The translations under genes were made by a program, and so were the position numbers. Under the pieces are notes generated by a model. It had not been told where the DNA came from. It searched no databases and was given only the letters and a program-made list of their open reading frames with translations. 44,706 bases of DNA, taken from NCBI GenBank assembly GCA_021454005.1, contig GCA_021454005.1_3939.1. One strand, written 5' to 3'. This document shows, piece after piece, positions 15,598 through 44,706 of this stretch; within the stretch, counting starts at the first letter, position 1; each line of letters begins with the position of its first letter. The stretch comes from a phage.

Positions 15598-15606
15598 TTT
15601 CTTTAC

Positions 15607-15628
15607 AGGGGCTTGATAGCCCCTTTTA
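15607..15628 (+). terminator. weak terminator / attenuator between tail fiber genes
   Basis: Hairpin GGGGC-TTGATA-GCCCC followed by TTTT. Confidence 0.4.
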
Positions 15629-15643
15629 AGAGGAAAATTTATA

Positions 15644-21300: not shown

Positions 21301-21600
21301 TTAATCTGCCAACCTTAAATTGAAATTAACACCAAATTTTTCACATACTTCCAACATATACTCAAGGGAGACGTTACCAGTGAGATGGATTATGTTGGAT
21401 ACACGAGCCTGAGAGATACCACAAATTTTAGCAACTTGCTCTTGAGAAAGACCTCTGGATTTAATCTCTCTCTTAAAACGATGTGCAACGAAATCTCTCA
21501 TTTCATCTACATCCATTGGACAAATATAACTCTCCATTTCAGCCTCTCTATCAGCCTCCCAATCATCTTGTGGGGCATAAGGGTCAAAAGCCTCATTCAT
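21301..21600 (-). CDS. putative helix-turn-helix DNA-binding protein
   Basis: HTH-like segment LSQEQVAKICGISQARVSNIIH preceded by acidic N-terminus; start taken at ATG 21600, overlapping upstream stop (ATGAATGA). Confidence 0.4.
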   Translation of the reverse strand: MNEAFDPYAPQDDWEADREAEMESYICPMDVDEMRDFVAHRFKREIKSRGLSQEQVAKICGISQARVSNIIHLTGNVSLEYMLEVCEKFGVNFNLRLAD

Positions 21601-22190: not shown

Positions 22191-22234
22191 AATGACCTCA
22201 AAGTTATATTAAATTTTGTATTACATTGAGTATA

Positions 22235-22263
22235 AAAATAAGCTATAACACCTGACTTGTCAA
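22235..22263 (-). promoter_or_regulatory. sigma70-like promoter for signal-peptide gene
   Basis: On - strand: TTGACA (22258-22263), 17 nt spacer, TATTTT (22235-22240); -35 extends as TTGACAAG..GGTG. Confidence 0.35.
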
Positions 22264-22282
22264 CAGACTTTATAGCTTATTT

Positions 22283-22656
22283 GGCAGATTTTTTATAAGG
22301 CTACTGCCATCCTTCCATACCCTACCTTACCACACCTAACCATACCTAACCAAACTACACCATACAATACCTTATTAAAAGACCCTCTTAAAGACCTTTT
22401 AAAAAGGTAAGTCTCATTTTAATGTAGCTGAGACTAACTACCCACACCTTACCTCACCTGACCTGACCTGACCATACCTAGCATTACCGTGCCACACCTC
22501 ACTTAAAAACCCTCTTAGAAGACTCTTAAGTGATGTAATCGGATTTTAATGTAGCTCCGATTAACTACCCGCACTTTACCAAACCTCACCCTACCCTACC
22601 AGACCTTACCTAACCGCGCCGTACCTCATTAAAAGACCCTCTTAAAGACCTTTTAA
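22283..22656. repeat. intergenic modular repeat array A (3 units)
   Basis: Hairpins at 22283-22308, 22410-22435, 22536-22563; G-depleted tracts at 22309-22374, 22436-22499, 22564-22628; second hairpin family at 22375-22402, 22500-22532, 22629-22656. Confidence 0.7.
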
Positions 22657-22678
22657 AAAGGAGCCTCCGAAGAGGCTA
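22651..22678 (-). terminator. rho-independent terminator (UUCG tetraloop) after 146-aa gene
   Basis: On - strand: AGCCTC-TTCG-GAGGCT followed by CC TTTTT; 10 nt after stop of gene 22689..23129. Confidence 0.5.
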
Positions 22679-22688
22679 CCTAGTCAAC

Positions 22689-23131: not shown

Positions 23132-23737
<606 letters not shown>

Positions 23738-23760
23738 TTAGTTGATTGTTAAGTTGTTTG

Positions 23761-24098
23761 TAAAGAACCCTCAATAGAAGACTCTTTAGAAACTTGGTAG
23801 ATTTTTAACGTGGCTACTACCATCCACCCACACTTTGCCATACCTCACCGCGCCTTACCCGACCGGGCTGCACCTTGCCTTGCCAAACATCACTTAAAAA
23901 CCCTATGAGATACCCTATCGAGTATAATTTAAAGGCTCTTAAGTGATGTAAGTCTCATTTTAATGTAGCTGAGACTAACTACCCATACCCTACTTTACCT
24001 TGCCGTACCGTACTTTACCCGACCACACCGGACAATACTTAACCCTACCTCACCCGACCGGACATCACTTAAAAACCCTCTTAGAAGACTCTTAAGTG
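23761..24098. repeat. intergenic modular repeat array B (2-3 units)
   Basis: Second-family hairpins at 23761-23788, 23891-23945, 24066-24098; first-family hairpins at 23796-23821, 23951-23976; G-depleted tracts at 23822-23890, 23977-24065. 24066-24098 equals 22500-22532; 23951-23976 equals 22410-22435. Confidence 0.7.
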
Positions 24099-24131
24099 AT
24101 GCTGGTGAGTACCCGTTGGTCTATGCTGCTC

Positions 24132-24159
24132 AGTATACTCACCAAATTTTCTATGTCAA
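24132..24159 (-). promoter_or_regulatory. sigma70-like promoter firing into repeat array B
   Basis: On - strand: TTGACA (24154-24159), 16 nt spacer, TATACT (24132-24137), just downstream of ligase stop; overlaps inverted repeat GGTGAGTA/TACTCACC (24104-24141). Confidence 0.35.
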
Positions 24160-24165
24160 CAACTT

Positions 24166-26569: not shown

Positions 26570-26630
26570 GTGACCTCCTATACAAGATACAGTATAAGGT
26601 ACTCTTCCATGAGCACCTTGTCAATACTAA

Positions 26631-29330
26631 TTAGTGAACCTCAAGCCAGCTTTTACCAACCTTACCAGTACCTGTAACAAGTGTTTCTTTCTTAAGACCT
26701 AAGTTCTTAGAAGCTTGTCCATAATACCAGTCAGTAACCGCTTTCACCTCTGCCGTCATGCTTTCTGGACATTCCCAACTCGTCTCATCGTGATATGCGC
26801 AGAGTAAACGAGCACCAATAGCTGGTTTGCGACCATTCAACTTCATCAAGCCTTCGTCAATCATACGACGACAAGCAAGGTTAATCGCCTCATTTTGAAT
26901 CTGAGCCTCTGAACCCATCAAAAGATAGTTCAATAATTTGTGTGGAGATTTACACCACAACCAAGCTCCAGCAACCTTTACAAAACCACCTTTAGAGATT
27001 GCAGCAGTCTTACCAAATACCTCTTCAAGTGCCTTTTTAGTTGCTTTGTAGTCAGCTTCCAAGTCATCTAGCAGCTTTTTAATTTTAGGCAAACGAATAA
27101 AGTAAGTCTGTTTAGTCAGCGCACCTTCCTGAGTAGTTGCAGCTTTAATCGTCTTAGCAAACTTCTCATCACCTGCACCGAACAGCAGTGCATAGATACC
27201 ATTCTTAGCTTTCTTACGACCCTTGCTAATCTCATGAAGAAGATTCTCATCCTGAGTAGCTCGACAAGTCAAGATGTCCTGCTCATCGTTCAAGTTAAAG
27301 TAAATACTGTTCAGTGTATGTGCATCAGTCCCTGAATAGACAACGTACAGGTCATTCTCAGAGTCATAGCGAAGGTACTTATCAATCTCTGGGTTAAGGT
27401 ACTCATCAAAGTGTTTACAGTAATAGCGTCCATCTTCTTGACGAATGAACTCAATTTCTTCTTTACCTTGCGTTACCGCTTTGGTGAAGTCTTTATCACC
27501 CATAAAGTTACAAAGAAGAACTAGCTGGGCTGAGTTCATGTCTACAGAGACAACGTTAGTACCTTCCTCACAAATCCACACTGCCCTCATTGGTTCCCCA
27601 TAGACAGCAGCACCAGACGGTACGTTTACAATACCATACTGTGTCATACGTCCAGTTGAAGTACCAAACACCATTGCACCAGCACTAAGGCGACCATCAG
27701 GACGAATCTGGTTCAACCAACCTTTTTCATCATCCTTTGAGTTCTCAATAGTTCTGCGTCGGTGCATCAAAGTGTAGTATTTAGCAATCTTCTGTCCAAG
27801 CTCACCTTCAATCGTATCGTAAGATGATTCAGTAAGTTTTGGTGAAGTACGGATTAAGCAAGGCTCAAGCAAATCTGTGTACTTCTTCACAGACCAGTTA
27901 TGCTCAATGTACTGGACGCCTTCGTGTTCAACATAACTCAAACCACACCGCTCAACCATTTCCTGCCACTTAGGATGCTTTGTAATCATCTTTTTATTGT
28001 CTTTGAAACGACAAACTTTGACAGGGCGACCATCAGAGTCTTTCTTGTAGTTCCAGTCATCTGGAATCCAACCAACTGATTTCAAGTAGTCTTTAACAAC
28101 TGCTACCTGAGTCATACGAGAAACTTCAAACTCAATTGGTGTATATGGTGCATCAATCAAACCTGTGTAGCGACTTGACTCAAGTTCAAAGTGGTTAACA
28201 ACGTGGCTGTTATAGTACTTCACAGTTTTGACTGTTTTTACTGGCTTCCAGTCTTTGCATTTCTTGCCAATCTTTGCGTTCAACTCATTGCAAATTGCAC
28301 GAGCATCCTTCATTGCTACAAAGCCTTCCTTGTACTCTTCACCAGTTACAGTGTTGGTTGGTGTATAGCAATTCCTTTTTTCAATGTTAAAAATCTTTGT
28401 AGTTGGCTTACCAAATGGTTTGATTTCGTATGTCTGCATCTCGCCATTACGTACCTGCTGACGATACTTTGTCTTAGGGTACTTGGTAATTCTTTTCAGT
28501 CCATCTGCATGACCAAATGTTTCAACATACTCATTCCAAGCTTTTGCAAACTCTTCTCCAGTGACTTTACCTTTGGTCTTAATAGTTGGAGGTAGATGTG
28601 GTTCAACCTCTGAAGCAAGCTCATTAGTCAACTTGTCAAGTTCCTTTACATGGAACTCCATAAGCTCTTTATCAGCTTTCCAACCATTGATAGCTTGTTG
28701 ACTCATCCAGAAAGATGTTTCTTTAGCTCGCATGTAGGTTTCATAAGTGTCTATGCCACACTTCTTAAGCTTGAGATACTCATTATCAAGTGCCCGTTTA
28801 GTTTTGGCGTTAATACGGATATCTTCTACAACACGAGTGAAGATTTCTGCATTCCACACACCCCAATGTTCAATCTCTGGTTTACGAACACCGACACGAG
28901 CACCCCATGCAGCCAAACCATGAGCACCTTTATAACCCTTTGGAGTTGGTCTATCCATCCACTGAACACGAGACTGGATAAGAGAATCCTGAAAGAAATT
29001 ACTCCACGGTTTACACTTTGGATTATCAAAGTTCCATAAATCGGGTGCAATGTGATTGAAAACCCACCAGTCATAACCAAGACCATTATGAATGCAAAGA
29101 CGTTTTGCCTTTAACGCAAATTCAATACCTTCACGTAAGCCACCCTTAATGTACTTGGTATACTTGTGACCGAGGATAGGCTCATCTGTAAAGACCCATA
29201 CAGGTGGCTCTTCATCGTCAGATTTATAGTCTGCGAAAGCCATTACGTGCACTTTAGTGAACTCAAGGAGTAAACCATCAGTTTCTGTATCACCAACTAA
29301 ATGTAAGTTTTTAAAATCTACGTTTTCCAT
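26631..29330 (-). CDS. DNA polymerase, family A (T7-like)
   Basis: Exo motif GDTETDGL; Pol A motif B RKKAKNGIYALLFGAG; motif C YHDE; start set at ATG 29330 with RBS GAGGGAG. Confidence 0.85.
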   Translation of the reverse strand: MENVDFKNLHLVGDTETDGLLLEFTKVHVMAFADYKSDDEEPPVWVFTDEPILGHKYTKYIKGGLREGIEFALKAKRLCIHNGLGYDWWVFNHIAPDLWNFDNPKCKPWSNFFQDSLIQSRVQWMDRPTPKGYKGAHGLAAWGARVGVRKPEIEHWGVWNAEIFTRVVEDIRINAKTKRALDNEYLKLKKCGIDTYETYMRAKETSFWMSQQAINGWKADKELMEFHVKELDKLTNELASEVEPHLPPTIKTKGKVTGEEFAKAWNEYVETFGHADGLKRITKYPKTKYRQQVRNGEMQTYEIKPFGKPTTKIFNIEKRNCYTPTNTVTGEEYKEGFVAMKDARAICNELNAKIGKKCKDWKPVKTVKTVKYYNSHVVNHFELESSRYTGLIDAPYTPIEFEVSRMTQVAVVKDYLKSVGWIPDDWNYKKDSDGRPVKVCRFKDNKKMITKHPKWQEMVERCGLSYVEHEGVQYIEHNWSVKKYTDLLEPCLIRTSPKLTESSYDTIEGELGQKIAKYYTLMHRRRTIENSKDDEKGWLNQIRPDGRLSAGAMVFGTSTGRMTQYGIVNVPSGAAVYGEPMRAVWICEEGTNVVSVDMNSAQLVLLCNFMGDKDFTKAVTQGKEEIEFIRQEDGRYYCKHFDEYLNPEIDKYLRYDSENDLYVVYSGTDAHTLNSIYFNLNDEQDILTCRATQDENLLHEISKGRKKAKNGIYALLFGAGDEKFAKTIKAATTQEGALTKQTYFIRLPKIKKLLDDLEADYKATKKALEEVFGKTAAISKGGFVKVAGAWLWCKSPHKLLNYLLMGSEAQIQNEAINLACRRMIDEGLMKLNGRKPAIGARLLCAYHDETSWECPESMTAEVKAVTDWYYGQASKNLGLKKETLVTGTGKVGKSWLEVH

Positions 29331-29376
29331 TTTTACTCCCTCTAAAATCATTAACCTCATACATTACTGCAAAAAA

Positions 29377-29382
29377 TTATAA
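29377..29382 (-). promoter_or_regulatory. candidate -10 (TATAAT) for DNA polymerase gene
   Basis: Perfect TATAAT on - strand about 47 nt upstream of the pol start; no well-spaced -35. Confidence 0.25.
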
Positions 29383-29526
29383 AAAGCAAGTTGACAATGC
29401 ACTTGACAAGGTGCTAATCTTTGCGAAGTGGGTTTTTACTTAAAAGGTTACTTAACAGTTTAACTATACAGATACTTTAAAACTCTTAAAAGATTATTTA
29501 ATAGCTTTTAAAAAGCTTTAAAGTAT

Positions 29527-29543
29527 AACGTATAGAATACGTT
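29527..29543 (+). promoter_or_regulatory. palindrome overlapping TAGAAT -10-like hexamer
   Basis: AACGTA-TAGAA-TACGTT inverted repeat in AT-rich region; TAGAAT at 29533-29538 matches the -10 of promoters at 33910 and 34249. Confidence 0.3.
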
Positions 29544-29587
29544 AAGATAAAAGATTAAAACTCAATAGTTACTTAAAAGAGGCTTAC

Positions 29588-34068: not shown

Positions 34069-34218
34069 ATGAAACACTCTAAAGCATTTGAAAAAGTTTT
34101 TGGGGATTCCTTAAAAGCCACTGCTGGAAAACCAGCAAAATACTATGAAGAAAAACGTGTAAGAACTGGAAAAACTGCACGTAAAGCAGCTTCTAAAGAT
34201 AAGCACAACTTCCAGTAA
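34069..34218 (+). CDS. small basic protein (49 aa), absent from ORF track
   Basis: ATG 34069 preceded by GGAGA 8 nt upstream; encodes MKHSKAFEKVFGDSLKATAGKPAKYYEEKRVRTGKTARKAASKDKHNFQ, Lys/Arg-rich. Confidence 0.3.
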   Translation: MKHSKAFEKVFGDSLKATAGKPAKYYEEKRVRTGKTARKAASKDKHNFQ

Positions 34219-35148: not shown

Positions 35149-35165
35149 TCTCTAAAGTTACTTTA

Positions 35166-35193
35166 AAGCCCTGTACTCCGTATGGGGCTTTTT
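35166..35193 (+). terminator. rho-independent terminator
   Basis: AAGCCC...GGGCTT hairpin followed by TTTTT. Confidence 0.45.
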
Positions 35194-44672: not shown

Positions 44673-44684
44673 CTTGACAAGGTG
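44673..44684 (+). promoter_or_regulatory. conserved CTTGACAAGGTG box after nrdD
   Basis: Same 12-mer as 29402-29413 (+) and 26615-26626 (- strand); contains TTGACA; downstream gene is outside the window. Confidence 0.35.
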
Positions 44685-44706
44685 ATGTGGGTCTTGATAG
44701 GCTTAC

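Follow-up and report, generated by a model that had tools for sequence, protein, structure and literature searches.

A conserved control region between the divergent pol and gp97 genes of a Felix O1-type phage, with two predicted sigma70-type promoters and a palindromic octamer leader

In the temperate phages lambda (pR/pRM), 434 and P22, divergent promoter-operators are controlled by dimers of Cro/C1-type helix-turn-helix (HTH) proteins. In the primary origin of phage T7, the promoters phi1.1A and phi1.1B precede an AT-rich segment that contains a primase site. Structured leaders that lie just downstream of early promoters include the lambda pL-N leader, the RNase III sites of T7 early mRNA and the put RNAs of HK022. 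Here we describe a 257-nt interval, positions 29331-29587 of a 44,706-nt stretch of phage DNA (contig GCA_021454005.1_3939.1 of GenBank assembly GCA_021454005.1; the whole stretch is hereafter referred to as the window). It separates the gene for a family A DNA polymerase (pol, - strand; homologue of Felix O1 gp96) from a homologue of Felix O1 gp97 (+ strand, start 29588), the first gene of a rightward block. Comparison with related phages indicates that the interval is likely to be a conserved early control region with two back-to-back sigma70-type promoters and a leader built on base-paired octamers.

The interval corresponds to the gap between genes 96 and 97 of phage Felix O1 (Whichard et al. 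2010, PMC3185647); the two are a single orthologous locus, with a DNA identity of 95-98%. In that study, early transcription was assumed to start from divergent promoters in the gap, and ORF96 (pol) was transcribed within 5 min of infection (PMC3185647). As an element the region is of a familiar type, although some of its conserved details lack an explanation, and divergent promoters were already postulated here in 2010. New here are a conserved predicted leftward promoter, a proposed correction of the pol start, the paralogy of two divergent junctions, and a palindromic octamer leader with compensatory changes. The palindromic leader, its octamers and the paralogous relation between the junctions were not described in any source searched.

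With the T7 primary origin, the locus shares a predicted promoter reading into an AT-rich segment, a T7-type polymerase and primase-helicase, and relatives with short terminal repeats. Its promoters, in contrast, appear to be of the host sigma70 type and not for a phage RNA polymerase, an enzyme that is not encoded by Felix O1 or reported for the phage group (PMC3185647), and its AT-rich DNA is conserved base by base and palindromic. As in the lambda, T7 and HK022 leaders, a long structured leader (here an interrupted hairpin of about 26 bp) would follow an early promoter and precede a terminator-rich operon, but no sequence or Rfam similarity to those leaders was found, and the helix is very AT-rich and marginally stable. 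The divergent operators of lambda (pR/pRM), 434 and P22 resemble the locus in back-to-back promoters, short palindromes and a phage XRE-type HTH protein, although those phages are temperate and the Felix O1-type phage examined here is virulent.

Conservation and predicted promoters of the interval

The window represents roughly half the genome of a Felixounavirus, a Felix O1/wV8-like myovirus of the Ounavirinae. Over 5.1 kb surrounding the interval, it was 98% identical to Felixounavirus LF110P2 and 95% identical to wV8, and 263 phage records were matched. The interval is non-coding, with no open reading frame of at least 20 amino acids inside, and has a G+C content of 26.8% vs 39.2% in the whole window. 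The gap was aligned for 20 sequences (18 distinct) from Felixounavirus, Suspvirus and Mooglevirus, and the comparison was extended to the corresponding gaps in Erwinia phages of Kolesnikvirus and in Pectobacterium phage Arno162. Judged by identity to Mooglevirus (Table 1), most of the non-coding DNA of the interval appears to be under stronger constraint than the adjacent gp97 gene. It is this conservation, not motif frequency, that seems to lift the observation above chance. A consensus promoter scan gave 4 sites vs 4.5 in shuffled sequences, and 39 vs 40.9 over 15 kb, with no excess in either case; the TTGACA sites were missing from its output because their -10 hexamers are weak. The 12-mer box within the interval, with up to two mismatches allowed, was found 12 times window-wide vs 5.4 expected and was not enriched; its two exact copies and one single-mismatch copy are all intergenic, beside -10-like hexamers. 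Since consensus scanning gave no signal above chance, the case rests on comparison with relatives.

The motifs that a preliminary description of the window had listed from the letters alone were all found. The two TTGACA hexamers start at 29391 and 29403, the latter within the conserved box CTTGACAAGGTG (29402-29413), and the repeated TTAAAAG occurs at 29440, 29486 and 29573. The left boundary of the interval is also right, with the pol ATG at 29330 and a conserved Shine-Dalgarno sequence. The perfect TATAAT on the - strand exists but lies at 29376-29381, not at 29377-29382. The palindrome at 29527-29543 is better read as two 7-nt arms around a 3-nt centre, with TAGAAT at 29533-29538. A second palindrome (29503-29517) and the inverted repeat at 29451-29546 had not been listed.

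The predicted rightward promoter (P_R) uses the first of the two TTGACA hexamers (29391-29396) as its -35, which was invariant in 21 sequences. It is followed by an 18-nt spacer with a TG (29412-29413) ahead of a -10 hexamer TAATCT (29415-29420); the spacing, the TG and TA[AG]TCT were invariant, and the 'n' of TGn varied among C, T and G. This pattern is as expected for an extended -10 promoter, and transcription is predicted to start at about 29427. From there P_R would fire rightward into the block that holds gp97, dNMP kinase and primase-helicase. The layout of an A-tract, TTGACA, 16-18 nt and TAnnnT was found at about 15 intergenic sites in wV8 and at 7 in the window, by which P_R belongs to the phage's own set of presumed host-type promoters. 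At the equivalent place, Kolesnikvirus and Arno162 carry a single TTGACA-17-TACATT/TAGGCT. In addition, two pattern-based promoters are annotated in the gap of phage AYO145A (NC_028825). The rightward feature, TTGACA-N18-TAATCT, is identical to P_R, and the leftward one overlaps a wrongly placed pol start and differs from the conserved TTGCTT-17-TAATGT described below.

For the predicted leftward promoter (P_L), the -35 hexamer TTGCTT was invariant, and the spacer was exactly 17 nt long in every lineage despite seven different spacer sequences. The -10 hexamer occurred as TAATGT, TAAGGT, TAGTGT or TAGGGT, with T1, A2, G5 and T6 kept, and these four positions were nearly the sole invariant columns of the otherwise variable segment 29343-29382. 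Fixed hexamers at a fixed spacing around a free spacer are a classical promoter signature, and the start is predicted at about 29354-29356. P_L would fire leftward from about 29355 and produce a short pol mRNA leader carrying the pol Shine-Dalgarno sequence. The -35 hexamers of P_L and P_R are one base apart (AAGCAA-G-TTGACA), and the two predicted promoters therefore lie back to back. Next to the rightward promoter, comparable leftward promoters were also seen by eye in wV8, at its other divergent junction (TTGACT-17-TACCAT), and in Arno162 (TTGACC-17-CATACT).

The region of divergent early promoters proposed in the preliminary description is thus supported by the comparison, with P_R on the first TTGACA, but the leftward promoter would not run through the - strand TATAAT. 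At a distance of 15-19 nt from that TATAAT there is no -35-like hexamer: AGTGCA, at 16 nt, is the best match, and TTGTCA is 10 or 22 nt away. The TATAAT is not conserved in Suspvirus or Mooglevirus, and other genera carry GAAACT, GTGTCG, AAAAAA or GAAGAT in its place.

The second TTGACA, inside the P_R spacer, has no usable -10 hexamer 16-18 nt downstream (AAGTGG). Together with the first it forms a twin module, GTTGACAA-N3-ACTTGACAAGGTG, which recurs at the other divergent junction of Felixounavirus genomes (wV8 23.8 kb; Felix O1 genes 40/41; outside the window). About 20 nt past the copy at 23.8 kb come ACTTAAAAGGTT and palindromes, as in the interval. The control regions at the two divergent junctions are, by their sequences, paralogous. 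The promoter 'P41' described in the 40/41 region of Felix O1 (PMC3185647) is the paralogous module at that junction.

The pol start at ATG 29330 is also annotated in the phages mistaenkt and Michonne. Farther upstream, the ATGs at 29351 and 29360 are in frame with it and serve as the pol start in several GenBank records; they are not conserved and are lost in Mooglevirus; the records of wV8, KhF3 and AYO145A start pol 21 nt upstream, at the ATG equivalent to 29351. Because the Shine-Dalgarno sequence is conserved and the upstream ATGs are lost in other genera, the comparison favours 29330 as the true start, which would correct many records.

On the other side, rightward of gp97, lie a gene with the annotation 'minor tail protein' and the genes for dNMP kinase and a T7-like primase-helicase. 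The gp97 homologue belongs to PHROG 4039, for which no function is known. Only nine homologues were found, including one near-identical copy and one fragment. A role of gp97 as a DNA- or RNA-binding regulator was rejected: it had no Pfam match, and it was predicted to fold into a helical hairpin (predicted local distance difference test score, pLDDT, 71) whose best PDB matches were generic coiled coils and thus gave no informative structural match.

Other candidate elements were rejected as well. A pairing of the transcript 5' end AGUGGGUUUUU with the gp97 Shine-Dalgarno region (helix 1) had no covariation support. The terminator-like hairpin at 29399-29414 has a stem of 5-6 pairs including one G-T and a tail, TAATCTTTGC, with no T run; almost no relative keeps its outer G-C pair, position 29414 being T or G instead. 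A promoter flagged by the scan in antisense orientation within gp97 (TCGACA-17-TAGATT) was not conserved.

Table 1. Features of the pol-gp97 interval and identity of its segments to Mooglevirus
Feature	Position	Strand	Observation
pol start	ATG 29330..29328, Shine-Dalgarno GAGGGAG 29342..29336	-	invariant in 20 sequences, 3 genera
P_L, predicted sigma70-type promoter for pol	29361..29389	-	-35 TTGCTT 29389..29384, 17-nt spacer, -10 TAATGT 29366..29361
Perfect TATAAT, probably not a -10	29376..29381	-	inside variable P_L spacer
P_R, predicted sigma70-type early promoter	29380..29420	+	A-tract TAAAAAG, -35, 18-nt spacer, TG, -10
CTTGACAAGGTG box, second TTGACA within P_R spacer	29402..29413	+	nearly invariant across genera, one A/G column
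Near-invariant AGTGGGTTTTT at start of predicted P_R transcript	29427..29437	+	invariant columns G98-T106
CTTwAnAG-type octamer array	29439..29579	+	eight copies, three pairs 11-12 bp apart
Octamers CTTAAAAG	29439, 29485, 29572	+	
Octamer CTTAACAG	29451 (to 29458)	+	
Octamer CTATACAG	29464	+	
Octamer TTTAATAG	29497	+	
Octamer CTTTAAAG	29516	+	
Octamer CTCAATAG	29561	+	
Imperfect palindrome/hairpin, 96 nt	29451..29546		repeat search, minimum free energy fold, RNAalifold consensus
Palindrome AGCTTTT-A-AAAAGCT	29503..29517		near centre of large inverted repeat
Palindrome AACGTAT-AGA-ATACGTT	29527..29543		overlaps TAGAAT 29533-29538
gp97 start	Shine-Dalgarno AAGAGG 29577-29582, ATG 29588	+	sequence
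Interval segment	29331-29382		identity to Mooglevirus 56-71%
Promoter block	29383-29432		identity to Mooglevirus 90-96%
Leader	29433-29587		identity to Mooglevirus 81-83%
gp97 coding sequence			identity to Mooglevirus 68-70%

The AT-rich leader

The 160-nt AT-rich stretch between P_R and gp97 would be transcribed as a leader. Its octamers form the densest cluster of their kind in the window, with 6 + strand matches vs 0.31 expected from Markov shuffles for a motif that was defined post hoc. In wV8, such a density was found only here and in a 1.6-kb non-coding stretch at 13.9-15.5 kb. Octamer arrays also follow the promoter in the leaders of Kolesnikvirus and Arno162. Genome-wide, ordinary intergenic DNA showed no sense-strand bias of the octamers (19 sense, 26 antisense).

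The 96-nt imperfect palindrome that spans much of the leader was folded in the RNAalifold consensus into four helices with a total of 26 bp (29451-56/29541-46, 29464-69/29530-35, 29475-81/29517-23 and 29486-92/29505-11). In the outer helix, two pairs were changed on both sides, A-U to U-A and C-G to U-A, at 29454/29543 and 29456/29541, and none was broken. The palindrome at 29503-29517 kept pairing in 98% of cells across 18 distinct sequences, with one change from U-A to U-G. In that at 29527-29543, 100% of cells pair, and two of the seven pairs showed compensatory changes, compared with none in slid controls. Both arms of the latter palindrome and the octamer CTTAACAG (29451-58) changed together, twice, and the other octamers stayed fixed. 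This coordinated change favours base pairing over a shift in protein specificity.

A -10-like hexamer (TAGAAT, TAACAT or TATAAT) was kept at the position 29533-29538 in all genera examined. It is a possible -10 of a weak second rightward promoter; the best -35 available to it is only TTAAAA, at 19 nt.

The leader sequence would be constrained by forming, or by being built from, the base-paired octamer palindrome at 29451-29546. It would most likely act after initiation, in RNA processing or stability, in translation of gp97, or in read-through of downstream terminators. The rightward block holds several intrinsic terminators according to the wV8 annotation, and control of read-through or processing by the leader would therefore have a purpose. 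That the leader is a cis-acting element new to the phage group, either a factor-independent (put-like) or RNase III-dependent read-through RNA or a transcription-activated origin of a T7-type replisome in a myovirus, is a tentative proposal that we think is rather unlikely to be correct. At the other divergent junction, a related module lies immediately past the paralogous early promoter. No Rfam model matched anywhere in the window at gathering score, and at a permissive threshold the interval matched only one model, for a plant miRNA (E = 4.5).

Members of this octamer family (CTTTACAG, CTCTAAAG, CTTTAAAG and CTTAAAAG) were also seen in other intergenic gaps of the window, at 15598-15643, 34073-34120 and 35149-35175. 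There they lie a few bases past stop codons, beside terminator hairpins.

Several points weigh against an early control region with two promoters and a base-paired leader. For the promoters, Whichard et al. 2010 could not recognise any in the 96/97 gap of Felix O1 (PMC3185647), and the generic promoter scan picks neither P_R nor P_L. The -10 hexamer of P_R matches the TATAAT consensus at only 3/6 positions (T1, A2 and T6, which are invariant). Both hexamers of P_L also match at 3/6, with only TTG--- in the -35. This reading does not account for the second TTGACAAGGTG within the spacer of P_R or for the near-invariant AGTGGGTTTTT at the start of the predicted transcript. No transcriptomes, start-site mapping or origin mapping for Felix O1-like phages were found in the searchable literature, and the text of the Bas63 PhageMaP preprint gives no result for this gap. 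For the leader, octamers such as CTTTAAAG are self-complementary, so that a repeat array brings some pairing for free. The covariation amounts to two substitution events in three clades, and for the full minimum free energy structure one slid control reached an equal covariation score. The fold was marginal against shuffled sequences, with z -1.95 for the + strand and z -2.53 for the opposite strand, and the + strand RNA is thus not singled out. Moreover, the long hairpin was not clearly stable in Arno162 (z -1.3) or Kolesnikvirus (z -0.6).

Operator and origin as alternative functions

The AT-rich segment could instead be mainly a binding array at the DNA level, with its octamers and two palindromes serving a phage or host regulator that modulates the promoters. 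The XRE-type HTH protein encoded at 21301-21600 would be an example, and it would shut off or modulate both promoters, or the weak TAGAAT promoter, in the style of lambda, 434 and P22. This protein is of the Cro/C1 type (HTH_3, E 5e-10; PHROG 1373 'transcriptional regulator'), the 15- and 17-bp palindromes fit dimer operators, and one of them overlaps the conserved -10-like hexamer. Further, the octamer family clusters at only three non-coding places (the interval, the other divergent junction and the 1.6-kb region), and the nearly invariant box CACTTGACAAGGTG of the P_R spacer has partial palindromic symmetry. The recognition helix, however, was essentially unchanged as ISQ[A/S]RVSNII (with Ala, ISQARVSNII, in Felixounavirus and in one Mooglevirus; with Ser, ISQSRVSNII, in the Michonne-like lineage) while the palindrome changed twice, from AAC to TAC to TAT. 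Co-evolution of the helix with the palindrome was not seen, and the link between the two suggested in the preliminary description found no support. The changes were also pair-specific, affecting CTTAACAG and both palindrome arms together, which fits base pairing better than a shift in protein specificity, and the palindromes lie 80-120 bp downstream of the predicted P_R start, outside the core promoters. We consider such an operator array unlikely.

A similarly low likelihood is assigned to the proposal that the interval is, in addition, a primary origin of the T7 type. By analogy, transcription from P_R would open or prime the AT-rich palindrome, and the T7-like polymerase and primase-helicase would carry out bidirectional synthesis. 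P_R would read directly into 160 bp of DNA with about 25% G+C, and the flanking genes are oriented away from the site in both directions. A family A polymerase and a gp4-like primase-helicase are encoded by the phage (PMC3185647), and the related phage UAB_Phi87 has short direct terminal repeats like those of T7 (PMC4837284). Direct octamer repeats and a large palindrome are common at origins, and the only GTC triplets, the core site of T7 primase, lie on the - strand in the two TTGACA boxes, as TTGTC. That coincidence follows automatically from TTGACA, though, and there is no GTC in the AT-rich part of the interval.

Several other points count against an origin. The interval contains no DnaA boxes (TTWTNCACA, up to one mismatch), no sites for integration host factor (IHF; WATCAANNNNTTR), no GATC and no MotA-box or T4-late motifs. 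No initiator-like protein is encoded next to it, and gp97 has no match to a DNA-binding fold. For an unwinding element AT-richness would be enough, and conservation of individual positions, as seen here, would not be required. The minimum of GC skew at this place is uninformative because the skew flips at all four strand switches of wV8, following gene orientation, and GC or cumulative skew was rejected as an origin marker since its extremes fall at all four switches. In addition, a much larger iteron-like array at 13.9-15.5 kb of wV8 is at least as good a candidate. The origin claim is without positive support; the architecture is compatible with a T7-like origin and does not demonstrate one.

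That array occupies about 1.6 kb without an annotated gene (wV8, L036, 13885-15530; outside the window) between convergent gene blocks. It contains the repeats CTTGTTAG, CTGTTAAG, CTTAAAAG and CTATAAAG, phased at spacings of 10-11, 20 and 31 nt, and inverted arrays of CTTAACA and TGTTAAG that face each other; its octamer family is shared with the leader of the interval. From its sequence, this iteron-like region is a candidate origin or protein-binding array.

Finally, it is extremely improbable that the interval has no special function beyond two ribosome-binding sites, with hexamers and small palindromes arising by chance in an AT-rich spacer: the consensus scan gave no excess of promoter-like sites, AT-rich DNA easily yields TATAAT-like and TTAAAA-like words and no Rfam match was obtained, but this idea is already contradicted by the conservation data, as the non-coding DNA is far better conserved than the flanking genes in three genera, the hexamer spacing is fixed while spacers vary, compensatory changes are present and the module is duplicated at the other divergent junction.

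Related sites elsewhere and significance for the phage group

The box of the P_R spacer was also found as a single -35, just after the pol stop (26614, - strand) and after nrdD (44673, + strand); in wV8, the AGGTG at the latter site begins an annotated terminator hairpin. At this site (window 44673-44706, which runs off the end; wV8 82040-82090), a promoter-like TTGACA-18-TAGGCT lies inside the terminator hairpin, which in wV8 reads AAGGTGATGT...ACATCACCTT with a T run after it. Between rIIA and rIIB, at 2298 of wV8, the spacer of a similar promoter also contains a hairpin (TTGACA-AGGGGCTTTGAAGCCCCT-TAGAAT). Directly downstream of the pol stop, at window 26570-26630 (- strand), a promoter-like ATTGACAAGGTG-...-TACCTT precedes the next small genes, by which the genes following pol would have a start of their own.

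A 23-nt twin -35 module, TTGACAAAGyACTTGACAAGGTG, was present in intergenic DNA of unrelated phage contigs with low G+C (IMG/VR L038, L051, L054, L068, L079 and L083, which form one family, L090 and L057). In these contigs, TATGAT or TACATT lies 17 nt from the first TTGACA. The carriers include one Clostridium-phage-like family and one marine T4-like contig (L090), and the latter is identical to the 23.8-kb junction of Felixounavirus over 35 nt. A search of bacterial genomes gave two matches only, both in coding DNA and probably due to chance, and a search of metagenomes gave no new lineages. This 23-35-nt cassette common to unrelated phages is a hint that the promoter design may be transferable or have arisen by convergence, and that it may have an extra function.

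Two other non-coding stretches of the - strand block, at window 22191-22688 (498 nt) and 23735-24165 (431 nt), consist of repeat units of about 127 nt. Within the units a pattern recurs every 5 nt, ACCTN on the + strand or NAGGT when read along the - strand genes, and their end, GGGTAGTTAGTCTCAGCTACATTAAAATGAGAC, is conserved and hairpin-like. Both stretches carry a good sigma70-like promoter, in 23735-24165 at the upstream (higher-coordinate) end (- 24159) and in 22191-22688 near the downstream end (- 22263). They correspond to 'DR_4' of wV8 and had no Rfam match.

Felix O1-type phages are widely used for typing and biocontrol of Salmonella and E. coli. For this group, the present analysis gives the coordinates of two predicted promoters that would launch the replication genes, and the leader and the twin -35 cassette point to a constraint beyond ordinary promoter function. 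Were the leader to prove an antiterminator or the origin, a true gap in what is known of these phages would be closed; otherwise, the interval would be a normal divergent promoter region. A read-through RNA, if real, would answer the terminator question left by Whichard et al. 2010.

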